A stretch of DNA of 64,000 bases. Source: Escherichia phage EJP2. The stretch lies in sequence record OQ411014.1. One strand, 5' to 3'. Both the position numbers and the translations under genes were made by a program. Under the pieces are notes generated by a model. That model searched no databases and was not told the DNA's origin. It worked only from the letters and a program-made list of their open reading frames with translations. Positions 7,972 through 59,358 of this stretch are shown here, piece after piece. Each line of letters begins with the position of its first letter. The stretch's first letter is position 1.

Positions 7972-8001
7972 TTGAGACAAAACTCAATACTATGATATAA
8001 T
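7972..8001 (+). promoter_or_regulatory. sigma70-like promoter TTGAGA-N18-TATAAT with TGA extended -10
   Basis: ttgaga at 7972-7977, tgatataat ending 8001; member of the recurring promoter family. Confidence 0.55.
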
Positions 8002-8031: not shown

Positions 8032-8280
8032 ATGGAACAGAATAAAAAAGAAGCTCAAAACTCCCGTCGCGTAGCAATGGATAAACTATCCGCTCTAACA
8101 GAACTCAAGAAACTACGTCGTGACGGTATCCTAACTCGTCAACAGTTCCGTCGTGAAGTATGGGACAAAGGTCTACAAACTGGCGTGAAAGGTGTTCCAG
8201 AAATCACTGCTTTCGAAGTTGTGAAAGTAGATGGTAAGAAAGCACTAACCGTTCAAGTTCGTCCTTGGGGTCGTATCTGA
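8032..8280 (+). CDS. hypothetical basic protein
   Basis: 82-aa ORF, RBS agagga, downstream of promoter and upstream of strong terminator. Confidence 0.5.
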   Translation: MEQNKKEAQNSRRVAMDKLSALTELKKLRRDGILTRQQFRREVWDKGLQTGVKGVPEITAFEVVKVDGKKALTVQVRPWGRI

Positions 8281-16828: not shown

Positions 16829-16881
16829 TTATAAAGGAGGTATAAATAAGTTATCGGATATCTATAACTAAGGGATATGAA

Positions 16882-19581
16882 ATGACTAAAAGAATTTATG
16901 GAGGCTTAGACGTTACTCATAACGTAACAGTTCAGGGCAAAAGGACAGTACAAGGTATCAATAATCAAGTATTCGATGCGAATGGTGATATGAAGATTAA
17001 TACCTATACTCAACAGGAATTACTCGATATTGTTAGCTTAATGCCAATATCACACTACGGTACTCACAACTACTTACCTGCTGGTGTTAGTGGGGACTTT
17101 AATGGTGCAGCGGAGAACCCAGCACAACGTAGAAACAAAATCCTACTGGAGAACGATGGTACACTAGTAATGCTACGTGCTGGTACAAACGGCAGTGTAG
17201 AAGGTTTATTCTATGCTTACCTACCAAATGCACTATCAGTTACTGATTTAGGTAGAGGTGTAAACACTGGTCGTCAGTACAAGCCAGGTTATTTTGGTAG
17301 TACTAAAACTGCTTTCGGTTTGTATAATACAGATGAGAACATTCTTCTAGGAAGATATTCTGATTCGTCAAATGGCAGTACTGGATGGTTTATTTCCATT
17401 ACTAACGGAACACTAGATGACACACAACATAATGGTTTCTTCTTGAATGCTTATACTGATATTGCCCCTCAAGGTGGTGTTGAATATGCAATGATGGCAG
17501 AAGATGGTTCAATTTACGTATTCAGTGTAGATACAAGTAATAACGAATTTAATATTGCAGTTGTTAGAGTTACTTTCAATTTGACGAATAAAACTTACAC
17601 AGCGTCAAGAATCACTGGTTGGACAACCAAGACGTTCTATAATACTACATATTCAGCAGATACTAATATTGTAGTGACGAAGAAAGTAAACTCAACTAAT
17701 ATCGCTGATAAGCCATATATGTACGTTCCGAATGGACTACTTGGTTTAGGTGTATACATGACGTCAATTGACTTGTGTGTAGCACAACAGCCAGGTACAC
17801 AGAACTTCCGCTTTAGAGTTAATGGTGATGCGTGGGCTACTATGGCAACGTATAATACCAGACCACAGCACAGTTATAGTTTCAACTTCAATATGAGTAC
17901 TAAACAATGTACGCTGGATGCAGGGAATGACATTGGTTCAAACGCAGCACCATTTATTGTTACTAATACAGGTTCACAATTAATTGCTTCTGGTAACGTA
18001 ATCAACCAAGATGATTTATATAATCACGGTGGGTGGAGAAACATTTATAGTTCTTACTATTACTTGGATATTGGTACAGTATTCTGTACTACGAGTCCTA
18101 ACTTGTCAGAACCATTGGGGATTGAAAAAGCAACATACCCAGCACAAAGTGTTTACAGTATGCTTAACGTAAGAGCAGTCAATGCATCAGCATTCAATAA
18201 AGGGAATCTTGGTCCTTCGTTCGGTTCAGCAGTTGGTTCTTACATTAACGGCGTAGAATTACTACCAGGTAACAGTACTAAACAATTCTCTCGTTCTTCT
18301 GGTACTGGTGCATTTAGACCATCATATGCAGTACATGCTGCTTCACCTACCTTTACGTTTAAATCTCTTTCAAGAGGTACAATGAAAGGTTATGAGCCTA
18401 CTGCTGAACGTGATTTCATTACAGATAATATAAACAACCGTATTTTCATTAGTACTGTATCTGGTTCGAATGTTACGACAAATGGTGGGATTTTCATGGT
18501 TGGTCAACGTTATTCACAGTCTTTGTCATTTGACAAACATGGTGTTGGTACTGGAACAATCTCGGTCACTGATTCAGTACTGGTAAATTTCAGAAATTCT
18601 GAATATGCAAAAGTACCTGCTTCATGGAATCTTTCTACAGCAGCAACTAAAGATATGACACTATTTGTTCCACAACAAACTGATATTCCTGCTTTTGTAA
18701 TGTTAAGTACTGTTACTACTGGAAATAAAAACTATATTAAGATTGTGGAAGTGAACGTTAATACCAGAAGTGGTAATATTACTTCAATTAGTTTTAAGCG
18801 TAATGTAATTGAAAACGTTTATGGTGATAGTTTTACACCAAATGGTGCTGGTGGTTTTGCTTCATCTTCTGTAGGTTTAACAATATATGATGGCGGTTCG
18901 TTCTACTTTATTGGTGGTTCAGATCCTTTATCTCACCCAACAATTGGCAATACGAATACACATCAATTCAGAGCTATTGTTACTAAAAGTACTGCACAAT
19001 TTGACAGCTTTATTATTTCAGGTTCACATGCTAGTTATGAACAGGGTATTCAACCTGCTGCTCTTCCTGGTATTGGCTTTGGGTATTTCCAAGCAATTGA
19101 CTACTCAAACAAAATGACATTCCAGAAATGTGGTACTACTGTTGCTGAATATAATGCATGGACAGCAATTGGTGATCCAATTAACGTAGTTTCACAAGAC
19201 GTTGCACAAGGATTTGTTGTTTACTTCAACGAAGAAACACCAGTAATGCTCAGTGGTAAGTCATTTACGATGCCAGTTCAAAGTGTTGATTTGAAAACTA
19301 TTAAAGCTAACCCAGCGAATACGACATTCCACATTTATGTGAGAATGAACCAAGGTAATGCAGAATATCATATAACTACTGAAGTTATTTCCGAAACTGG
19401 TAGTACTGCATATAACGTATTCTGGATTGGTACTGTTACTACGGATGCTATCCAAATCTCGACTATTAATGTATTCAAGCGTTCTCGTTTGGATGTATTT
19501 GGTGCATCACTTGAACCAACCGGATCATCATTCCCAGTGAGTTATGGTCTACCATCAGGCAACGGAACAATTAACTGGTAA
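16882..19581 (+). CDS. putative tail fibre / receptor-binding protein (paralog A)
   Basis: 899 aa, S/T/G/N-rich; N-terminal similarity to 20188 ORF; shared C-terminal motif ending GTINW. Confidence 0.5.
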   Translation: MTKRIYGGLDVTHNVTVQGKRTVQGINNQVFDANGDMKINTYTQQELLDIVSLMPISHYGTHNYLPAGVSGDFNGAAENPAQRRNKILLENDGTLVMLRAGTNGSVEGLFYAYLPNALSVTDLGRGVNTGRQYKPGYFGSTKTAFGLYNTDENILLGRYSDSSNGSTGWFISITNGTLDDTQHNGFFLNAYTDIAPQGGVEYAMMAEDGSIYVFSVDTSNNEFNIAVVRVTFNLTNKTYTASRITGWTTKTFYNTTYSADTNIVVTKKVNSTNIADKPYMYVPNGLLGLGVYMTSIDLCVAQQPGTQNFRFRVNGDAWATMATYNTRPQHSYSFNFNMSTKQCTLDAGNDIGSNAAPFIVTNTGSQLIASGNVINQDDLYNHGGWRNIYSSYYYLDIGTVFCTTSPNLSEPLGIEKATYPAQSVYSMLNVRAVNASAFNKGNLGPSFGSAVGSYINGVELLPGNSTKQFSRSSGTGAFRPSYAVHAASPTFTFKSLSRGTMKGYEPTAERDFITDNINNRIFISTVSGSNVTTNGGIFMVGQRYSQSLSFDKHGVGTGTISVTDSVLVNFRNSEYAKVPASWNLSTAATKDMTLFVPQQTDIPAFVMLSTVTTGNKNYIKIVEVNVNTRSGNITSISFKRNVIENVYGDSFTPNGAGGFASSSVGLTIYDGGSFYFIGGSDPLSHPTIGNTNTHQFRAIVTKSTAQFDSFIISGSHASYEQGIQPAALPGIGFGYFQAIDYSNKMTFQKCGTTVAEYNAWTAIGDPINVVSQDVAQGFVVYFNEETPVMLSGKSFTMPVQSVDLKTIKANPANTTFHIYVRMNQGNAEYHITTEVISETGSTAYNVFWIGTVTTDAIQISTINVFKRSRLDVFGASLEPTGSSFPVSYGLPSGNGTINW

Positions 19582-22946: not shown

Positions 22947-22980
22947 ACTCAATTGAGGTTGTCTATTGACAGCCTCTTTT
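22947..22980 (+). terminator. hairpin aggttgtc/gacagcct followed by T7
   Basis: 8-bp stem with one G-U pair, overlaps -35 of next promoter. Confidence 0.55.
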
Positions 22981-26671: not shown

Positions 26672-26701
26672 TTGAGATGAATGAAAATTTTGTGATATAA
26701 T
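26672..26701 (+). promoter_or_regulatory. sigma70-like promoter TTGAGA-N18-TATAAT with TGTGA
   Basis: ttgaga 26672-26677, tgtgatataat 26691-26701; fires into an ORF-free region. Confidence 0.55.
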
Positions 26702-26704
26702 GTA

Positions 26705-27175
26705 TAGTACGGATAACACCTATGTTGAATGTCTTTGATAAACAGAACCTGATCCACTCGAAAATGTAGAGGGCAGATGAGTAGAACATTCACTACGAAG
26801 TGCAAATGAAACCCGTCAGTAATAAAGCGTAAGTGCGGTCATACAAACGAGACGTAAGACACACGCGACACGGCAAAGCGGCACTATAAAAGCGATAAGA
26901 AAACATATTCGCTCTTGATAGACTTATGAGGCATACTCACCCAGTTGAAAGGGAGTCTCTTTACGGAGAGACAGCAGTATTTGTTGCTGAATTAGCAAGT
27001 ACTGTAAGCGTGTGAGGAACACGACCGTTGTATGCAGACTGTAGTAGCTGGAAACAGGACAACCCGCCAGCGTTGCTACTTTTATTTGTACGGGAAAGAT
27101 CCGTCCAAAAAGTAGTGAATCTACAAATTCAGATTGGTAAGACTACCAGCGTCAGGATATTCCTGATTTTTTTTC
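26705..27175 (+). ncRNA. candidate structured non-coding RNA (about 470 nt), identity unknown
   Basis: no ORF of 60 aa or more on the plus strand; locally GC-richer; bounded by promoter 26672-26701 and hairpin plus T8 at 27153-27175; internal perfect hairpin gtctct/agagac. Confidence 0.3.
27153..27175 (+). terminator. hairpin cagga/tcctg followed by T8
   Basis: short stem and long T-tract at the end of the ORF-free region. Confidence 0.5.
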
Positions 27176-27311
27176 GGCCCTCCCTTGTGGGGGGATGGAA
27201 TTGGATCAACAAACCTCGTCAAGTATAATATGAATAGTATTAGTACTTAATAATTCAAATGAATTGAGAGATATGAGATGAGCGATAGCGAAATCGAATA
27301 TGTCTCAATTC

Positions 27312-43621: not shown

Positions 43622-43682
43622 TAAAATAAAAAAGCATCTCTAAATACAGTAACAGTAAACGTTACTTATGAAGAGGTGCTTT

Positions 43683-44468
43683 ATGGCATATGATTATCAG
43701 GGCAACCCAGAAGCCCCAAATTACGACCACAGAGAAAAATTAAAAGATGTAATTACTACACGTCTAGGAGCTGGGGCAGTAGAAGTAGAAATTACTGATG
43801 ACCAGTTAGAGTTAGCTATTGACATGGCAGTAGAGAACTACAGAGCGTGGTCAGGCAATTCCAAAGAAGAATCATTCTTGCATATGAAACTATTCCCATC
43901 TGAATCAGTCTATGTGTTACCAACAGAAGTTGAAATCGTTCGCAGAATTTACCGCAGGGGTAATGGTGTAGTATCAGGAAACAGTAGTACTGTTGACCCA
44001 TTTAGTCTTGCTTATAGCAATACTTATCTATTATCGGCAGTTCGTGGTAGTACTGGTGGTGGTCTATTAACTTATGACTTGTATCACCAATTTGATGAAA
44101 CTGTAGCACGTCTATTCGGTCGTGAGATTATATTCCAATGGAACCCAGTTAACAAAAAACTAATTATTGATCGTGACATTCGTGGTGAAGAAGATGTACT
44201 ATTACATGTGTACCAAAACGTACCAGAGCCAATGCTATTCAAACAGCAAATGACTTATCCTTGGTTGCGTGATTGGGCTATGTCTGAAGCGATGCTAATG
44301 TTAGGTCGTAACCGTTCTAAATTTGCTACCCTTCCAGGGCCACAAGGTACATTCAGTATGGATGGTAATGAACTTCGCCAGGAAGCAATGGCAATGCAAG
44401 AGAAATTAGAGCAACAAATCCGTAATTACAGAGATGGTTCAATGCCATTATCTTTCATTATTGGATAA
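43683..44468 (+). CDS. putative virion structural protein (neck/tail-completion-like by position)
   Basis: start at ATG 43683 (aagagg RBS); lies two genes upstream of the sheath gene; no motif recognised. Confidence 0.35.
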   Translation: MAYDYQGNPEAPNYDHREKLKDVITTRLGAGAVEVEITDDQLELAIDMAVENYRAWSGNSKEESFLHMKLFPSESVYVLPTEVEIVRRIYRRGNGVVSGNSSTVDPFSLAYSNTYLLSAVRGSTGGGLLTYDLYHQFDETVARLFGREIIFQWNPVNKKLIIDRDIRGEEDVLLHVYQNVPEPMLFKQQMTYPWLRDWAMSEAMLMLGRNRSKFATLPGPQGTFSMDGNELRQEAMAMQEKLEQQIRNYRDGSMPLSFIIG

Positions 44469-45285: not shown

Positions 45286-47931
45286 ATGGCTGATCTATTA
45301 TCACCAGGTGTAAGTGTAACAGTCACTGATGAGTCAATGAGCGGTGCTTCTGCTCCAGGGACTGTCCCACTTATCATCATTGCAACTGCACAAGACAAAT
45401 TGGTTCCAGGCAGCACATCTGTTGCACCAGGGACTCTCAAAGCGAACGCTGGTAAACTACAGCTACTAACTTCACAAAAAAATGCCCTTGACGTATTCGG
45501 GACACCTATTTTTCAGAAACATTTAGGTTCAGTAGTTCAAGGCGACGAATTAAACGAATACGGCTTACATGCTGCTTATTCATATTTGGGAATTGCAAAC
45601 CGTGCTTATGTAGTACGTGCTGACATCGACCTAGCACAGCTAGCACCAACTGGTACTGCACCAACTGGCCCTGTTACCAACGGTAAACTATGGTTAGATA
45701 CTACTGCAAGTCAAGTTGAAGCATATGTTGCTAAGAAAGATGACCCACAATCATTCTACGACTGGCAACTAAAACCAGTACGCATCGTTAGTGCGGCTGA
45801 TATTGCTGATGTTGATACTATTGGTCTAAACGTTGATGACCTAGTACTACGTTACAACCCAGCGAATGGTCAACTACTAATGTACAAATTTTCTGCTGCT
45901 GGTCTAGTTCAAGTTGAAACTTACCTATCACCAATCAACAAAGTACCATCAGGTATTGAATACAATGAAGGTGATATTTGGATTCGTGATGGTTTCACTA
46001 AATCTGGTTCTAACTACTTCGGTACTCGTTTTGTTATTAAACGTTATGCTTCTCTAACTCGCGTATGGCAGAATGTTGATACCTTTACTGGTACAAGTTT
46101 CTATGAAATTGAATCTAAAACTGGTGTAATGTCGTCTTCTTACATCACTGCACTATTCGATTATGATAGTAATAGTTTCTCCTTCTATATGCAACGTGCT
46201 TCATTACCTACCGTTACCGCTGGTGCAGTTCCAGTTGGTCAATCTTCGGTAAACACTGCTGCTGTTGATGGTTTCTTAACTGTTAATTATCTAAATAAAT
46301 CCGTTAAAGTACTAGCAGTACTACAAGGTCAACTAATTAATGCTGCTGTTATCATTGAAAATTTGAATAAGAGTTCAGTACTAATTAACGCAGGTTTCAC
46401 ATTCACTGGAACACAAGATGTTGTCATTACTAACCGTAATGGATATAGTTTTAAAGTGAGTCAATCAGACGAAGTGATTTTTAGCCAACAAGAACTCAAG
46501 AAACTAACTCAAGATAGCAGTAACTATGCACTAGTTAACGTTAACAACCTAGTAACTTCAGCAACCGAACCACGTGCTGTTGCACCAGAAGGTACTTACT
46601 GGTATGACTTTAGTAACTCTGACAATCTTGAAGTAACTCTTTATACTGCTAATACCAGTACTGAAGATTGGGATCTAGTAATTGCTAGTGACAAGTACAT
46701 CCAAGTTGATGAACCTGCTGCTGACCGTTCTTTCTGGGTTCTACCACTATCTCAAGGTATTGATGGTTATGAGTTCTATCGTAACGTAAATGGTGAGTGG
46801 ATTAAACTAGATCCAGCAGACCAAAGTACTCTAAACGGTATGATTTACGAAGACTTCAATGACGAAGTACCAAGTGCTAACCTATACCAAAACGGTATGC
46901 TTGCAATTGACCTAGGCAATACTGAAGGTGTTGTTAAACAAATGGTTAATGGTAAGTGGGTAGTAGTAAGTGGTGTTGCTATTGATGGTTCTGGTCTATT
47001 TGGTCGTCATGCACAACGTCAAATGATTGTTGAAGCTATGGCATCTGTTATCGTTAGCAACGAAGCGATTCGTTCTGAGACTGTCGATTTCAACCTAGCG
47101 GTTGCTCCTGGTTATGTTGAACTACTAGATGAACTAGTAACTCTAAACACTGACCGTAAAGAAACATCTTTCTTGATTACTGATGTTCCAGCACGTTTGA
47201 AACCTTCCAGTACTGACGTACAAGAATGGGCTACTAACGCTAACAACGCTCCAAGTAACGGTGATATCGGTCGTGTAACTGCATACGATTACGCTGCACA
47301 ATACATGGGTTGGTGCTTAGGTACTAACGTTGATGGTGAAGAAGTTGCTATTCCTGGTTCTTCTGTTGCACTACGTACCTATGCGTACAGTGACAGTGTT
47401 TCTTATGTATGGTATCCACCAGCAGGTACTGCACGTGGTGTTGTTTCCAACGCTGCTTCAGTAGGCTTCATCAATGATGAAGGCGAATATGAGCCAGTAG
47501 TTTACAACCAAGGCCAACGTGATATCATGTATATCAACAAGATTAACCCGATTGCAATGCGTCCAAACCGTGGTCTACTAGTTTATGGTGATAAGACACT
47601 AACTGCGAACGAAACTTCAGCACTAGCGAACGTAAACGTAGCACGTCTAATCGTATACATTCGTCGTCAACTAGACATTCTTGCTGAACCATTCCTATTC
47701 CGTCTAAACACCCCAAGTACTCGTCAGGAGTTCGCTGGTGTAGTGAACAGCTTCCTAGCAGAAATCGTTCAACTAAATGGCCTATACGACTTTACTGTTG
47801 TGTGTGATGAATCAAACAACACCCCAACTCGTATTGACCGTACTGAACTATGGATGGATATTGCGATTCAACCAACTCGTACAATTAACTACATTTATGT
47901 ACCAATTCGTATCGAGAAAACTCAAGCATAA
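45286..47931 (+). CDS. tail sheath protein
   Basis: 881 aa; N-terminus ADLLSPGVSV and C-terminus IDRTELWMDIAIQPTRTINYIYV resemble the T4 gp18 termini as recalled; followed by tube genes. Confidence 0.8.
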   Translation: MADLLSPGVSVTVTDESMSGASAPGTVPLIIIATAQDKLVPGSTSVAPGTLKANAGKLQLLTSQKNALDVFGTPIFQKHLGSVVQGDELNEYGLHAAYSYLGIANRAYVVRADIDLAQLAPTGTAPTGPVTNGKLWLDTTASQVEAYVAKKDDPQSFYDWQLKPVRIVSAADIADVDTIGLNVDDLVLRYNPANGQLLMYKFSAAGLVQVETYLSPINKVPSGIEYNEGDIWIRDGFTKSGSNYFGTRFVIKRYASLTRVWQNVDTFTGTSFYEIESKTGVMSSSYITALFDYDSNSFSFYMQRASLPTVTAGAVPVGQSSVNTAAVDGFLTVNYLNKSVKVLAVLQGQLINAAVIIENLNKSSVLINAGFTFTGTQDVVITNRNGYSFKVSQSDEVIFSQQELKKLTQDSSNYALVNVNNLVTSATEPRAVAPEGTYWYDFSNSDNLEVTLYTANTSTEDWDLVIASDKYIQVDEPAADRSFWVLPLSQGIDGYEFYRNVNGEWIKLDPADQSTLNGMIYEDFNDEVPSANLYQNGMLAIDLGNTEGVVKQMVNGKWVVVSGVAIDGSGLFGRHAQRQMIVEAMASVIVSNEAIRSETVDFNLAVAPGYVELLDELVTLNTDRKETSFLITDVPARLKPSSTDVQEWATNANNAPSNGDIGRVTAYDYAAQYMGWCLGTNVDGEEVAIPGSSVALRTYAYSDSVSYVWYPPAGTARGVVSNAASVGFINDEGEYEPVVYNQGQRDIMYINKINPIAMRPNRGLLVYGDKTLTANETSALANVNVARLIVYIRRQLDILAEPFLFRLNTPSTRQEFAGVVNSFLAEIVQLNGLYDFTVVCDESNNTPTRIDRTELWMDIAIQPTRTINYIYVPIRIEKTQA

Positions 47932-49630: not shown

Positions 49631-51739
<2,109 letters not shown>

Positions 51740-54376: not shown

Positions 54377-55351
54377 ATGAAAAACAAAATCAATGAAGCA
54401 TCTATCAAACTTGATGTGAACGGTCTTGAGTCATCTGACTTCGATACCTTATCCCGTATGCTTGCTCTAGCTGGTCAAGCTGAAACACAGGGTGGTAATA
54501 ACCCTGGTATGTCCGAACTACCAAAAATGAAAGCATTCGACTTTGATGCATTTGGTGGTGACGAAGCTGAAGTTGAACCAATTCCTTCTGCTGATCCATT
54601 TGGAGAGCCGGAGGCTGAACTTTCCGTCGAACCAATGGCAGAACCTGAAGTTGGTTCTGAAGAAGAACTTTCTCTTGACTTAGATGGTTCACCGTCACTA
54701 GAATCTGGTGATGAGTTCGAAGAAGATGATTTCGATTTCGGACGTATGTCTGAACTAGCTGGTCTAGGTGAAAGTGTTTCTCTAGCAACTTCAGAAGACG
54801 AAGCTGGTGAAGGTGAAGTAGAAGATGCTGATGAACTTGCCAAAGATGAAGAAGATGCAGCAGCAGAAGAACTTTCTGAAAAACTACTCCCTGACCTATC
54901 TCTAGATGAAGATGCTGAAGCACGATCTGACGATGGTGATCGTCACCACGTTGTGGATTCAAAAGAACATGGTCCATTCAGTACTGAACGTGAAGCTGTT
55001 CATGATGCAATGCGTGTAACCAATGGTACTGAATTCGAACATTTTGCTATCATCCCAGGAAAAGACGGTTATTACTGGAGACGTAACCTACAAGAAGGTT
55101 TCGATAACGAACCAGAACCAGAAGTTGTTGATATGGATGGTATTGAAAATAGTCGTCATGAATTCAAACGTGTTCCAGGAACTGCACTTGGTGATAACCC
55201 ACTAAAAGAATCTGAAGATGAAGACTCAGATAAGTGTGACAAATGCCACGAAGATCCATGTGAGTGTTCGGACGAGAAACTAGATGAAGATGTATCTGAC
55301 ATTCTAGAGAGCATCAATGCTCGCTACAATGAATACATCAAAGGTCTATAA
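54377..55351 (+). CDS. highly acidic low-complexity protein with C-terminal Cys cluster
   Basis: long D/E-rich tracts; CDKCHEDPCEC near the C-terminus; 324 aa. Confidence 0.5.
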   Translation: MKNKINEASIKLDVNGLESSDFDTLSRMLALAGQAETQGGNNPGMSELPKMKAFDFDAFGGDEAEVEPIPSADPFGEPEAELSVEPMAEPEVGSEEELSLDLDGSPSLESGDEFEEDDFDFGRMSELAGLGESVSLATSEDEAGEGEVEDADELAKDEEDAAAEELSEKLLPDLSLDEDAEARSDDGDRHHVVDSKEHGPFSTEREAVHDAMRVTNGTEFEHFAIIPGKDGYYWRRNLQEGFDNEPEPEVVDMDGIENSRHEFKRVPGTALGDNPLKESEDEDSDKCDKCHEDPCECSDEKLDEDVSDILESINARYNEYIKGL

Positions 55352-55749: not shown

Positions 55750-56130
55750 ATGATGATGATACCGCCAACTGATCGTACTGACTCCCAGATGGAAGTACTT
55801 TCTAAAATACGGTCAGTACAAGTGGAAAAATCTGACTTAACCGACCGTTTAGTACTGAAGTCTATCTTTGAAAATTACAGATCCGGTTCGGGTATGAGAT
55901 TGAGTAAATTTGGTAAAGAGATGTGCATTGAGCATGAACTCTATGAGTTTGCTAAGTTTAATATCCCTAAAGGAACTAAGAAATCAGTACTGTTTATAAC
56001 GCTTGACAGATTATGCAAAGAGCCGTATTATGTAGAAGGTTTCGATGTGTTTCTGTCGGATGCACAAGTAATAACAGAACTGACATTTTGTTGTGATGAT
56101 TTTGAAAAATTGATTAAACTTTATTTGTGA
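55750..56130 (+). CDS. hypothetical protein
   Basis: 126-aa ORF. Confidence 0.45.
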   Translation: MMMIPPTDRTDSQMEVLSKIRSVQVEKSDLTDRLVLKSIFENYRSGSGMRLSKFGKEMCIEHELYEFAKFNIPKGTKKSVLFITLDRLCKEPYYVEGFDVFLSDAQVITELTFCCDDFEKLIKLYL

Positions 56131-56154
56131 CAAACCAATAAAGTGTGATATAAT
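56125..56154 (+). promoter_or_regulatory. sigma70-like promoter TTGTGA-N18-TATAAT with TGTGA
   Basis: tgtgatataat 56144-56154; family architecture. Confidence 0.5.
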
Positions 56155-56301
56155 AGTTTTACAGTTTACAAGGCACTCTGATTTAAAATAAAATAAAATC
56201 AAAAGTGCCTTCTCTTTTGCCAAAATTTATGATACACTATAAATTCTGACAAAAGCATCTCACTAAAACGAGATGAGTTAAAAAAAGATTTAAAAAAGTG
56301 G

Positions 56302-56330
56302 TTGACAAGGCATTAAGAAGTACGTATAAT
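56302..56330 (+). promoter_or_regulatory. consensus sigma70 promoter TTGACA-N17-TATAAT
   Basis: perfect -35 and -10 hexamers with 17-bp spacer, about 120 bp upstream of the AAA+ gene. Confidence 0.7.
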
Positions 56331-56448
56331 TAATCACATCAAGACGAGAACGTGATTGAACAAATGAGAAAAAGGACTTGACTCTACCAACGGATTTTGG
56401 TAAACTAAACAAACTTTACTTATCATCAATAAATGAGGAATCAATACT

Positions 56449-57780
56449 ATGTCTACTAACAACGACCTGCTGAACATCAAACTGTCCCCAAAACAAGCTA
56501 AAGCTGCTATGGAAGCTGCTGACCTGTGCCGCGATAGTCTGATGATTTGGGGTGCACCTGGTATCGGTAAATCCGCAATTGCACGTCAATACGCTGATGA
56601 GAAATATCCACTGCGTAAAGACAACGTTGGTCGTATCGCATCTCTGAACAATCGTATTGCTCAAGAAACTGATGCTGATGAGAAGAAAGCACTAGAACGT
56701 GAACTGGCTTCACTAGAATCCAAACTGATTGATCAAGATACCAACTTCATTGACTTCCGTCTGTCTCAGATTGAACCAACTGACTTACGTGGTATCCCAG
56801 TTCCAGAAAAACTGTTCCGTTCTACTAACGGTAACCTGTTGAAAGAATCTGAACTGGCTGAAGCGAAAGAGTACGTAGCTGAAACCGCAGTAACTTGGGC
56901 TGCTCCTAAAGTACTGAAACTGGCTGACGATTGGAAAGGTGTGATTCTGTTTGATGAAATCAACTCCGCAATGCCGATTGTACAAGCAGCGTCCTACCAG
57001 CTAATTCTGGACCGTTGTGTTGGTGAAATGAAACTACCATCTACTGCACTGATTCTTGCAGCAGGTAACCGTGACGGTGACGGCGGTGTAACTTTCACCC
57101 TAGCTACTCCACTGCGTGACCGTATGACTCACATTGAAGTCACTCCGAATCACACTGACTGGATTGATGACTATGCAATCAACAAGCGTCTGAACGCAGC
57201 GACTGTAGCATTCATCAACAACACTGGTAGCAAGTACTTCAACACGCTAGACCCGAACAACCCAAGCCATGCTGGTGGTACTTCTCCACGCTCTTGGGAA
57301 AAAGTAGCCGAGTACGAAGATCTGAATCAAAAAGGTCTGTTGACTAAAGAAATCTACCGTGCTATGATTGCTGGACGTGTTACCGATGGTATCGCAGTTG
57401 AGTACATCGAGTTTGTTGAGAACGTTGCATCTCTACCAGATACCATGAAGATTCTGACTGGTGAGATCAAAGAGATTGATAAAGACTTGGATATTTCTTC
57501 CAACTACTTCATCACTCTGAACCTAGTGTACAAGATTATCGCACTCTTCGAAGAGAAGAATGAGAAACGTCTAAGTGCAGAAGAGTGGAACCAAATGGCG
57601 AATAACTTCGTAGTGTTCCTAGACCACAACTTCTCTGCAACACAAGGTGAGTTGGCAGTACTAGCAATTCGTAACATTACTATCGCAGGTGTTACTATGT
57701 CTTACAACGATGTTCCAGCGTTCCAGCCGTTCGTAAAACGCTACATGGGTCTAGTTCGTAAAGCACGTGCACTGAAGTAA
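56449..57780 (+). CDS. MoxR-type AAA+ ATPase (AAA_5-like)
   Basis: Walker A GAPGIGKS; Walker B VILFDEINSA; LILAAGNRDG sensor; LATPLRDRM; CTG-rich codon usage unlike neighbouring genes. Confidence 0.8.
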   Translation: MSTNNDLLNIKLSPKQAKAAMEAADLCRDSLMIWGAPGIGKSAIARQYADEKYPLRKDNVGRIASLNNRIAQETDADEKKALERELASLESKLIDQDTNFIDFRLSQIEPTDLRGIPVPEKLFRSTNGNLLKESELAEAKEYVAETAVTWAAPKVLKLADDWKGVILFDEINSAMPIVQAASYQLILDRCVGEMKLPSTALILAAGNRDGDGGVTFTLATPLRDRMTHIEVTPNHTDWIDDYAINKRLNAATVAFINNTGSKYFNTLDPNNPSHAGGTSPRSWEKVAEYEDLNQKGLLTKEIYRAMIAGRVTDGIAVEYIEFVENVASLPDTMKILTGEIKEIDKDLDISSNYFITLNLVYKIIALFEEKNEKRLSAEEWNQMANNFVVFLDHNFSATQGELAVLAIRNITIAGVTMSYNDVPAFQPFVKRYMGLVRKARALK

Positions 57781-57790
57781 TAACTCAAAA

Positions 57791-57817
57791 GGAGGCTGAA
57801 TAATCAGTCTCCTTTTT
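57791..57817 (+). terminator. hairpin ggaggctga/tcagtctcc followed by T5
   Basis: 9-bp stem with one G-U pair; may attenuate between the two module genes. Confidence 0.6.
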
Positions 57818-57840
57818 AAACAAACCGAGGAAATCATATA

Positions 57841-59253
57841 ATGAGTAAATTCAATAATTTGTCTACTAAACTTCCCGATTCAGTTTTGCAAGAATGTAAT
57901 GAACGTATGGTACTAGCTCGTACTTCACTGATGCTCTCTAAACCATTCTTTGGTGTTTTGGCATCTCGTCTTCGCCCAGTACCGAATGATACTTGGTGTC
58001 GTACGATGGCAGTAGATGGCAAACACTTGTACTATAACGTAGAATTCGTTATGGGTTTACAAGACCAAACTAAACGTGCACAATACGAAGAAGCACTAAA
58101 AGAATCAATCGACGATATCAGTACTGAACAAATCAATGACGTACTGAACGGTCTATCTGACCAGAACCTGATTGCTGTACTGTGTCATGAAATTCTTCAC
58201 TGTGCTTATGACCACTTCTTGCGTCGTGGTATGCGTGACCCACAACTGTTCAACAAAGCTGCTGACTATGCAATCAACCAGATTCTAGTTCGTGAAAACA
58301 TTGGTAAGATTCAGTCTTCTTGGTTGTACGACAAGAAATATGACGGAATGACCGCTGAAGAAATCTATGTTCTTCTTGAAGAAGAGAAGAAGAAAGAAGA
58401 GCAAGAAAACGGTGGTGGTGATGGCGACGGTGATGGTTCCGATGACCAAGATGGCGATGGTGACGGAAACAGCAACGGTGGTGGTAAGAAGAAAGGTAAG
58501 AAAGGTAAAGGCGGCACAATTGACCAGCATGACGTACCACAAGAAGGTGATGGTGAAGTAAGTGATGCCAAGCGTCGTGAATATATGGAAGATTTCAAAA
58601 CTGCAATGATGAACGCAGCACGTGCTGGTGGTACTCCAGCAGAAATCGAACGTATGATTGACTCCTTCACTAAACCAAAAATCGACTGGCGTTCTAAACT
58701 ACAACGTACTATGCGTTCTTGCATGAAGTCCGATGTAATTTTCTCTAACCCAAGTCGTCGTTCTTGGAGTACGGGCTTCGGTCACAGTGGTTCTTTCTTT
58801 GGTTCTCCTATCTTCCCAGGACTGAAACCAGATGAAGATATTGATATTGCAATTGCACTTGATGCGTCAGGTTCTATCAGTAATGATATGTTGCGTGACT
58901 TCATCAGTGAAGTGATGGGAATCACCAAACAGTTCAAACAGTTCAAGATTCGTATTATGACTTTTGATACTAAGGTTTATACTGTTCGTGATTATAAAAC
59001 TGGTGAAGAGAAGAAGATTCTAGAATATCCAGTTCATGGAGGTGGTGGTACTGATTTCCAAGCAGTTTGGGATCATATGCGTGATGACAACTACCGTCCA
59101 AAACAACTCGTAATGTTCACTGATGGTGAGCCGTGGGATTCCTGGGGTGACGAAAACTATTGTAAGACTCTTTTCGTAATCCACTCCAACCCTGAAAAGA
59201 TTGCACCATTCGGTGAAACCGTACACTACGAGTACGAAGCGAAGCAACACTAA
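57841..59253 (+). CDS. HExxH metallopeptidase-like domain plus vWA domain protein (DUF2201-like architecture)
   Basis: HEILH motif; G/D and K/G low-complexity linker; MIDAS-like DASGS in IALDASGSIS; 470 aa. Confidence 0.7.
   Translation: MSKFNNLSTKLPDSVLQECNERMVLARTSLMLSKPFFGVLASRLRPVPNDTWCRTMAVDGKHLYYNVEFVMGLQDQTKRAQYEEALKESIDDISTEQINDVLNGLSDQNLIAVLCHEILHCAYDHFLRRGMRDPQLFNKAADYAINQILVRENIGKIQSSWLYDKKYDGMTAEEIYVLLEEEKKKEEQENGGGDGDGDGSDDQDGDGDGNSNGGGKKKGKKGKGGTIDQHDVPQEGDGEVSDAKRREYMEDFKTAMMNAARAGGTPAEIERMIDSFTKPKIDWRSKLQRTMRSCMKSDVIFSNPSRRSWSTGFGHSGSFFGSPIFPGLKPDEDIDIAIALDASGSISNDMLRDFISEVMGITKQFKQFKIRIMTFDTKVYTVRDYKTGEEKKILEYPVHGGGGTDFQAVWDHMRDDNYRPKQLVMFTDGEPWDSWGDENYCKTLFVIHSNPEKIAPFGETVHYEYEAKQH
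58381..58515 (+). repeat. low-complexity tract within the CDS (E/K-rich, then GDGDGDG, then G/K-rich)
   Basis: encodes EEKKKEEQENGGGDGDGDGSDDQDGDGDGNSNGGGKKKGKKGKGG. Confidence 0.8.
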
Positions 59254-59261
59254 TATAAATA

Positions 59262-59298
59262 ATGCGTAAGTTCAGGATGTTCTTACGCATTTTATTTT
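59262..59298 (+). terminator. hairpin atgcgtaag/cttacgcat followed by T-rich tract
   Basis: perfect 9-bp stem, 11-nt loop. Confidence 0.65.
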
Positions 59299-59316
59299 GA
59301 GATATCATAAGAAATT
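59287..59316 (+). promoter_or_regulatory. sigma70-like promoter TTGAGA-N18-TATAAT with TGTGA
   Basis: ttgaga 59287-59292, tgtgatataat 59306-59316. Confidence 0.55.
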
Positions 59317-59358
59317 GTGATATAATATGAGTACAATAAACAATACATGGAGTGTATT

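Follow-up and report, generated by a model that had tools for sequence, protein, structure and literature searches.

Why does a large phage carry a gene for a MoxR-type AAA+ ATPase beside one for a protein that combines a predicted metallopeptidase with a vWA domain, and what would such a pair act upon? The two genes lie on the + strand of a 64,000-nucleotide stretch of Escherichia phage EJP2 (sequence record OQ411014.1; the whole stretch is called the window below), the ATPase gene at 56449-57780 (443 amino acids) and the peptidase-vWA gene at 57841-59253 (470 amino acids), and both open reading frames (ORFs) are present as an initial annotation, made from the bare sequence, had reported them. 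With moderate confidence, we read the pair as a highly expressed, early, ATP-driven remodelling or protease machine aimed at a host protein, whether for counter-defence or for host takeover. The secure points are the domain identities, the orthology to gp24 and gp25 of phage N4, and the strict linkage of the two genes. The pair is a known kind of module, already known from sequence analysis in many large phages: the statement in the initial annotation that its function is undefined is roughly true, but the pair had been recognised before, as N4 gp24/gp25 and in jumbo phages (PMC7824862, in its passages on the pair). New here are the conserved terminator between the genes and the conserved promoter-hairpin leader upstream of the ATPase gene.

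The two genes and their motifs are these:

56435-56439, + strand: ribosome-binding site GAGGA, 9 nucleotides before the ATPase ATG, read from the sequence
56449-57780, + strand: MoxR-like AAA+ ATPase, orthologue of N4 gp24, with Walker A at nucleotides 56551-56574 and Walker B residues D169 and E170 at 56953-56958
57827-57831, + strand: ribosome-binding site GAGGA, 9 nucleotides before the ATG of the vWA gene, read from the sequence
57841-59253, + strand: zincin-like peptidase domain (DUF2201_N) and vWA-like domain (DUF2201), 470 amino acids, orthologue of N4 gp25
58186-58200, + strand: HEILH, partner residues 116-120
about 58387-58518, + strand: disordered acidic/basic linker, partner residues about 183-226
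58861-58875, + strand: metal-ion-dependent adhesion site (MIDAS) motif DASGS, partner residues 341-345

The Walker, sensor, HExxH and MIDAS motifs claimed for the two proteins were borne out by alignments of 30 ATPase and 33 partner homologues, on which all statements of motif conservation are based. In the ATPase, G35, G38, K41 and S42 of Walker A (GAPGIGKS, residues 35-42) are invariant, as are N207 of sensor 1 (within AAGNR), R225, the arginine finger (within PLRDRM), and P280 and R281 of sensor 2 (within SPRSW), and D169 and E170 of Walker B (VILFDE) are invariant or nearly so. The window ATPase falls below the Pfam cut-offs (AAA, 19.2 bits for a cut-off of 21.2; AAA_5, 17.2 bits for a cut-off of 22), the orthologues from PA5oct and from plasmids exceed that of AAA_5, homologues at E = 1e-35 to 1e-47 carry PF07726, PF07728 and PF20030, and among distant homologues AAA_3 (the MoxR family), AAA_5 and the bpMoxR domain are found. 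With a profile of the family, Midasin is the first match among solved proteins. An AlphaFold model of the ATPase (pLDDT 84) includes strands 116-125 and 142-151 and a short hairpin at 189-196; relative to shorter family members there are a helical insertion (52-95), an enlarged beta-hairpin (116-151) and a C-terminal helical domain. When this model was searched with Foldseek, the top 16 matches were all NorQ or CbbQ2 (E = 2e-7 to 1e-5), with dynein and McrB ranking next, such that the NorQ hexamer, NorQ-NorD complexes and CbbQ2 are among its closest structural matches, in keeping with the domain call made at first. By its motifs and its predicted fold, including beta-hairpins inserted in helix 2 and ahead of sensor 1, the window protein is a divergent MoxR-class AAA+ ATPase of the helix-2-insert clade.

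In the partner, Pfam recognises DUF2201_N (132.9 bits, cut-off 23.2; E = 2e-38) and DUF2201 (72.3 bits, cut-off 26.4; E = 5e-20), in that order. Proteins of this architecture, N4 gp25 among them, go under COG3864, 'predicted metal-dependent peptidase'. Within HEILH, H116, E117 and H120 are invariant, and H125 is conserved in at least 90% of the homologues; C121, R128, D142 and N146 are likewise invariant. The MIDAS is complete, with D341, S343, S345, T404 and D428 all invariant, and the C-terminal motif APFGxTVHYE is conserved. The Gly/Asp and then Lys/Gly linker varies in sequence and length and has a pLDDT below 50, which predicts disorder. The only sequence hint to the affinities of the N-terminal domain is a weak one, to the minigluzincin MJ1213 (E = 0.24 in a sequence search). 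The partner is thus built, by prediction, of a metal-peptidase domain with a zincin-like HExxH, a disordered linker and a vWA domain with a full MIDAS. Of the profile matches that the initial annotation proposed to look for, those to DUF2201_N and DUF2201 were obtained, whereas AAA_5 stays below its cut-off for the window ATPase and no CobS/CobT-specific family appears in Pfam or NCBIfam scans of the pair, against a CobS/CobT chelatase. An HNH endonuclease, the name given to PHROG 1314, was also rejected, the Pfam scan yielding only DUF2201_N, DUF2201 and vWA families and no HNH; the label stands on N4 gp25, PBECO4 gp009, Hallingskeid CDS0447, GAP32 and other GenBank and RefSeq records, and judging by the domain content it appears to be an annotation error propagated through pipelines.

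The same two-protein logic, an AAA+ ring with a vWA-MIDAS adaptor, is found in NorQ-NorD, CbbQ-CbbO and RavA-ViaA (PMC13036017), with which the window pair shares only about 15% sequence identity. These bacterial systems differ from the window pair in that the MoxR partners NorD, CbbO and ViaA lack an HExxH domain and have respiratory or carbon-fixation enzymes as clients, and in that the window ATPase, compared with bacterial MoxR proteins, carries about 110 further residues at its C-terminus that make up a helical domain. On the model of NorQ-NorD, CbbQ-CbbO and Midasin, six copies of the ATPase would assemble into a ring to which the vWA protein docks, the metal of the MIDAS would capture an acidic side chain of the target protein, ATP hydrolysis would remodel the target or else the linker of the partner itself, and cleavage or inactivation of the target by the HExxH domain would follow.

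What, then, might the target be? The sole experimental phenotype found for the family comes from a preprint describing HIDEN-SEQ, in which saturated transposon libraries of the Vequintavirus Bas54 (phage MaxBurger) were analysed (bioRxiv 10.1101/2025.11.20.689424). Bas54 belongs to a different phage family from the window phage, and its two orthologues, bas54_0063 ('MoxR ATPase'; E = 5e-33 with the window ATPase) and bas54_0055 ('putative metallopeptidase'; E = 3e-55 with the window partner), are not adjacent as in the window but, as in Vequintavirinae generally, are some 3.6 kb from each other, on opposite strands and to either side of an 'anti-sigma factor' gene; the Bas54 ATPase lacks the 52-95 insertion, and the Bas54 partner shares with that of the window an insertion after residue 70. 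In E. coli K-12, both orthologues are non-essential, with 60 of 64 TA sites hit in bas54_0063 and 81 of 86 in bas54_0055 (10.1101/2025.11.20.689424, supplementary tables). When K-12 is compared with the clinical isolate E. coli CFE311, bas54_0063 is depleted with a log2 fold change of -7.23 (adjusted p shown as 0.00000) and bas54_0055 with one of -2.20 (adjusted p = 0.009) (10.1101/2025.11.20.689424); we attribute these numbers to CFE311, the command line and values of the 'K-12 vs CFE303' sheet being identical to those of the CFE311 sheet. Two genes, bas54_0063 and the small, unrelated bas54_0140, are described in the preprint as 'specifically required to overcome DS-28', which is the name of a two-gene system of CFE311, predicted to act in defence, that was also cloned and tested, and plaque assays with knockouts support this; the K-12 TA-site counts and the depletion of bas54_0055 are found in the supplementary tables and are not discussed in its text (10.1101/2025.11.20.689424). 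The gene-pair family goes unmentioned in a second transposon-mutagenesis preprint. The requirement for the MoxR orthologue against DS-28, together with the depletion of the peptidase-vWA orthologue, agrees with the suggestion in the initial annotation of a regulated protease or an inhibitor of a host system, and the Bas54 orthologues make a protein of the host, for instance one belonging to an anti-phage defence system, the likeliest target.

The likeness to NorQ may also be taken in another direction, namely that the pair is a chaperone that matures a metalloenzyme of phage or host (e.g., one of nucleotide metabolism) or inserts its cofactor, on the pattern of NorQD, CoxDE and CobST, with the HExxH motif holding a metal and not cutting protein. 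The ATPase's top structural matches, NorQ and NorQD, are indeed a metal-insertion machine, and nucleotide-metabolism genes do occur nearby, including those for dCTP deaminase in N4, thymidylate synthase in the window, and glutaredoxin and GTP cyclohydrolase I in marine contigs. However, no enzyme neighbour is constant across lineages, neither protein has a Pfam match to CobS, CobT or CbbQ_C, plasmid copies sit beside genes of other kinds (PRTRC and type IV secretion), and the host-specific need seen in Bas54 is hard to square with housekeeping maturation, all of which makes this role improbable.

If the machine acts upon the host, how would the phage express it? The elements that surround and separate the two genes are as follows:

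56127-56154, + strand: family promoter GTGACA-N16-TATAAT with an extended -10 (TGTGATATAAT), right after the stop codon of the last structural-block gene
56170-56219, + strand: hairpin followed by CTCTTTTG, a predicted intrinsic terminator or attenuator (-14.2 kcal/mol, z = -3.4)
56302-56330, + strand: perfect sigma70 consensus promoter TTGACA-N17-TATAAT, with a predicted start near 56337 and a 5' untranslated region of about 110 nucleotides
56378-56406, + strand: weak proximal promoter-like sequence TTGACT-N17-TAAACT, overlapping the conserved ACGGATTTTGG block
57787-57817, + strand: predicted intrinsic terminator between the genes, made of an A-tract, the stem GGAGGCUGA-AUAA-UCAGUCUCC and UUUUU (-18 kcal/mol, z = -7.9)
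59261-59298, + strand: closing terminator, hairpin AUGCGUAAG...CUUACGCAU and then UUUAUUUU (-13.1 kcal/mol, z = -3.6)
59297-59326, + strand: next family promoter, directly after the closing terminator

The unit therefore runs, in order, from the stop codon of the structural block (56130) through family promoter, hairpin with T-run, perfect promoter, weak block, ATPase gene, terminator, vWA gene and terminator to another family promoter. Both promoters that had been noted upstream of the ATPase gene were recovered. Perfect TTGACA-N16-18-TATAAT sites occur four times in the window (at 22966, 33869, 49271 and 56302), all on the + strand and two of them inside genes; because four were seen where 0.13 were expected (none of 100 shuffles reaches four), we take these sites to be real promoters and not products of chance in AT-rich DNA. 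The upstream element at 56127-56154 belongs to a six-member promoter family, (T)TTGAGA-N16-17-TGTGATATAAT, whose -10 elements stand at 7993, 22986, 26693, 33246, 56146 and 59318, all intergenic and on the + strand. On this sequence evidence, the source phage evidently relies on the host's sigma70 RNA polymerase.

The leader upstream of the ATPase gene has the same plan in 10 of 10 relatives: an extended -10 after the upstream stop codon, an interval of 10-100 nucleotides, a hairpin with a T-run, and a ACGGATTTGG block. The 56127-56154 element is kept in Hallingskeid, Munch, PBECO4, RaK2 and GAP32 as well as in four metagenomic relatives. Across the 10 relatives, 92% of cells in the hairpin at 56170-56219 are paired and three pairs show compensatory changes, and the covariation score exceeds those of all 500 shuffles, which for ten related sequences amounts to moderate evidence. 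Transcription that begins at a strong promoter and runs into a terminator would suit either attenuation, with delayed read-through, or production of a short RNA of 55-100 nucleotides. The position of the perfect promoter at 56302-56330 is without a counterpart in all 10 relatives inspected; lying downstream of the hairpin, this promoter would bypass it, and would do so in the window phage only. The ACGGATTTTGG block is kept in the relatives, and within it Hallingskeid and PBECO4 have a true TATAAT. In scans for Rfam families and tRNAs, neither the window nor the leader gave a match.

The terminator between the genes is, to judge from predicted folding, a family trait. In 68 relatives from viral contigs, the spacer between the ATPase and vWA genes has a median folding energy of -25.6 kcal/mol, with z < -2 in 79%, and in Munch terminators are annotated at both places, between the two genes and after the vWA gene. 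Several of the marine-type spacers inspected have a new TTGACA...TATAAT promoter after the hairpin. For the 60-nucleotide spacer of the window, a promoter serving the vWA gene was sought and rejected, the sole candidate -10 overlapping the ATG; the spacer having no usable promoter, expression of the vWA gene must therefore come from read-through. The description of the pair as a two-gene module holds for its linkage, which is strict, but since a terminator separates the genes, the pair is not a simple co-expressed operon. The terminator would hold the vWA-peptidase below the level of the ATPase, and an ATPase in excess of its adaptor would agree with a single vWA protein on each hexamer, the arrangement of NorQD (PMC13036017).

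T4-like late control of the pair was considered and set aside, TATAAATA occurring only twice on the + strand and in neither case upstream of the pair. One copy (59254-59261) follows the stop codon of the vWA gene without a gap, and the other (16841-16848) lies 41 nucleotides upstream of a gene for 899 amino acids at 16882.

The codon usage of the ATPase gene was said to be CTG-rich and host-like, and so it proved: CTG accounts for 0.57 of its 44 Leu codons, compared with 0.00-0.32 in neighbouring genes with comparable Leu counts and 0.36-0.43 in a few short genes (5-14 Leu). Its fraction of E. coli-optimal codons (all such fractions being relative to an assumed list of optimal codons) is 0.728 (z = 2.9), the highest among genes of more than 100 codons, and that of the partner gene is 0.636 (z = 1.6). 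Because the ATPase orthologues of Hallingskeid, PBECO4 and Munch also exceed their neighbours (0.62-0.67 vs. 0.45-0.58), the bias is inherited and gives no sign of recent transfer. With a perfect sigma70 promoter and host-optimal codons, the ATPase gene would be transcribed strongly and early by host RNA polymerase. Elsewhere in the window, large genes of the structural block (43668-44468, 45286-47931, 49631-50725, 54377-55351 and others) are without any CTG, the count in 45286-47931 being 0 of 72, and there are possibly two codon regimes within one genome, of early genes adapted to host tRNAs and of late genes. An 82-amino-acid gene at 8032-8280, which begins 39 nucleotides downstream of a family-promoter -10, has an optimal-codon fraction of 0.731, like the ATPase gene, and is likely another highly expressed early gene.

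Where else the pair occurs bears on what it could act upon. Translated searches yielded 781 phage records for the ATPase and 322 for the partner (Rak2-like, PA5oct-like, Vequintavirinae, Schitoviridae and others). Among 80 viral metagenome contigs with a relative of the partner, three had less than 215 nucleotides of upstream sequence and were untestable, and in 77 of the 77 testable contigs the ATPase gene lies upstream on the same strand. The gene order is the same in N4, Erwinia phage S6, marine contigs and plasmids, and in N4, S6 and the marine contigs the pair is placed among DNA-metabolism genes. Of the 58 plasmids that harbour it, most are megaplasmids of Burkholderiales, and half are typed as conjugative; on them the pair adjoins PRTRC-system and type IV secretion genes, and both of its proteins are full-length homologues. 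By these matches, the pair is widely distributed as a module, among large virulent phages and in some conjugative plasmids. Its two genes are parted in some genomes, by an uncharacterised 305-amino-acid ORF in Cupriavidus pENH92, by an IS21 insertion in Burkholderia pBcp895-1 (both plasmids also have an uncharacterised ORF of about 500 amino acids upstream of the pair), and by three small genes and a homing endonuclease in PA5oct, for which the main text of the genome's paper gives no per-gene timing.

The best-known relatives are gp24 and gp25 of N4, which match the window ATPase (E = 9e-27) and partner (E = 8e-24) over their full length. N4 gp25 is close to the archetype of both Pfam families (DUF2201_N, 3e-87; DUF2201, 1e-46). 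The two genes count among the roughly 14 core genes of N4-like phages, where they are listed as 'unknown' or 'vWFA domain' (PMC4193335, PMC7650795, PMC2784036), and they are expressed as middle transcripts (PMC4193335). The N4 and window pairs have the same Pfam architecture, order and adjacency, with HExxH and MIDAS kept, but only about 25% identity: the window ATPase is 90 residues longer than gp24, having the helical insertion at 52-95 and the enlarged beta-hairpin at 116-151, and the window partner has, relative to gp25, some 35 additional residues following residue 70, along with the long Gly/Asp/Lys linker. Furthermore, the N4 pair is transcribed as middle genes by N4's own RNA polymerase II, whereas the window phage has sigma70-type promoters.

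Occurrence in lytic phages and in conjugative plasmids alike, both of which must establish incoming DNA, would also suit a replication-associated protease that clears DNA-bound or cross-linked host factors from that DNA, following the logic of Wss1 or SPRTN with Cdc48/p97. The middle-gene timing in N4 and neighbours such as Gam-like, 5'-3' exonuclease, DprA-like and helicase genes are favourable to such an idea, as is the HExxH-x4-H spacing of the partner, which we take to resemble that of small zincins with a nearby third histidine. Yet domain scans found no DNA-binding domain in either protein, neither sequence nor fold matches SprT or Wss1, and the idea is purely analogical, so that we give it little credence.

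Plasmid carriage, beside carriage by phages, raises the further thought that the pair is a conflict module directed against competing mobile elements, as a superinfection-exclusion system or abortive effector, like the bacterial vWA-MoxR ternary systems, to which a part in conflicts has been ascribed (PMC7159879). The flanking ORFs include no evident VMAP-like third component or effector, as judged without VMAP-specific profiles, and PADLOC, in which the pair has no match, does not mark it as a component of a known defence system. Moreover, the pair is a strictly conserved core gene set in strictly lytic phages, and the Bas54 phenotype is a loss of phage fitness on one host and not a loss of exclusion; we find this explanation very hard to credit. 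The plasmid copies, the N4 middle genes, the DNA-metabolism neighbours, the dispensability in K-12 with a host-specific need in Bas54, and the sigma70 promoters and codon usage point to a target that would be a host protein, or one associated with incoming DNA, in early or middle infection, and away from the building of particles.

The locus in the window has another setting. Among nucleotide matches of 56100-59300, Erwinia phage Hallingskeid ranks first (79%), ahead of Escherichia, Salmonella and Klebsiella phages of 340-385 kb (73-77%), and by these matches the source phage is a jumbo myovirus related to the Rak2-like group. Proteins identical to those of the pair turned up only on short contigs assembled from public sequencing runs. 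In Hallingskeid, tail-tube, head-closure and virion-protein genes precede the pair, and a DprA-like gene and thymidylate synthase follow; the window has the same order, with thymidylate synthase about 2 kb downstream of the pair and with flanking ORFs of 126 and 80 amino acids that are bounded by terminators.

Such surroundings bring in the published proposal. In 'group 2.2' jumbo phages, Iyer et al. described a MoxR ATPase with a metallopeptidase-vWA partner (PMC7824862); the phage group (Rak2-like and relatives) and the domain description are those of the window, and, on the passages devoted to it, theirs is almost certainly the same gene pair. Those passages, which make no mention of N4 gp24/gp25, Vequintavirinae or plasmids, take Acidianus two-tailed virus as their model and propose that the pair has a part in assembling virions and in proteolytic processing (PMC7824862). 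That virus too encodes a MoxR-vWA pair, p618 (MoxR) and p892 (vWA), but, going by its description there, the vWA partner lacks a peptidase domain, the host is archaeal, and the role proposed is in extracellular tail development (PMC7824862). In the present case the pair would be a chaperone that folds or assembles tail or head parts, with HExxH as a maturation protease processing structural proteins. This is the main rival of the counter-defence or takeover machine, and we consider it unlikely.

Apart from the published analogy, the observations in favour of virion assembly are also ones that weigh against a machine aimed at the host. In Rak2-like phages the pair comes directly after the virion structural block, with its tail-tube, head-closure and virion-protein genes. 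Mass spectrometry of virion preparations revealed the ATPase orthologue in phAPEC6 (gp265c, 49.5 kDa, 6 peptides; PMC7247149; equated with the window ATPase by gene order and mass) and likewise in PA5oct. The pair belongs to the core genes of N4-like phages (Schitoviridae), an unusual position for anti-defence genes, which as a rule are variable. On the same side of the balance, the anti-defence evidence comes from one preprint, on an orthologue only about 25-29% identical; the text of that preprint names the ATPase and bas54_0140 and not the peptidase (10.1101/2025.11.20.689424), and neither the window nor the compared loci hold a homologue of bas54_0140. Two fold searches with the full partner model listed vWA matches throughout, and among these listed matches there was no solved relative of the N-terminal domain. 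Finally, we infer complex formation and the 6:1 stoichiometry by analogy, and early timing from promoters and codons only.

Several findings nevertheless argue against a role in the virion. Both Bas54 orthologues accept transposons at more than 93% of TA sites in K-12; conjugative plasmids, which build no virions, carry the module; and N4 gp24/gp25 are middle genes among replication genes. In the window, the pair has its own sigma70 promoters and terminators, and its codon usage is the opposite of that of the structural genes, which have almost no CTG. As for the proteomes, the vWA-peptidase is reported in neither that of phAPEC6 nor that of PA5oct, and the phAPEC6 virion list also includes thymidylate synthase (PMC7247149) and is therefore contaminated by abundant non-structural proteins. 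With thymidylate synthase on the same list, detection of the ATPase in the phAPEC6 virion preparation may be a reflection of its abundance, and genuine packaging of the ATPase would in any case be compatible with a counter-defence role.

One stretch of the window remote from the pair also deserves description. Downstream of the family promoter at 26672-26701, some 500 nucleotides (26708-27228) are devoid of ORFs and are 89% identical to Salmonella phage Munch and relatives, compared with 73% for the ATPase coding region against the same phages. The segment folds at z = -3.5, has no Rfam or tRNA match and finds several matching places in each related genome, and is a candidate conserved non-coding RNA of Rak2-like jumbo phages.

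To return to the counter-defence or takeover machine, a broader version of it, which we put forward tentatively and hold to be doubtful, is that the pair constitutes a general ATP-powered counter-defence protease of large lytic phages and conjugative plasmids: the MIDAS would seize an immune protein (e.g., of DS-28), the MoxR ring would feed it to the HExxH domain, the leader attenuator and the inter-gene terminator would set dosage and timing, and the window phage would have escaped the attenuator by way of its perfect sigma70 promoter. Most of the anti-defence proteins known so far are either small inhibitors acting stoichiometrically or modifying enzymes, and an ATP-driven protease that disables host immunity would, if confirmed, represent a new class of anti-defence machine. 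It would also bear on the choice and engineering of therapeutic phages, Vequintavirinae and jumbo coliphages being candidates for therapy. The analysis combines the N4 core genes, the comparative genomics of jumbo phages and the Bas54 screen in a single hypothesis, testable at named residues, and it concerns genes of the gp24/gp25 type that are among the few common to all N4-like phages and that recur in rV5-like, PA5oct-like and Rak2-like phages and in conjugative plasmids.

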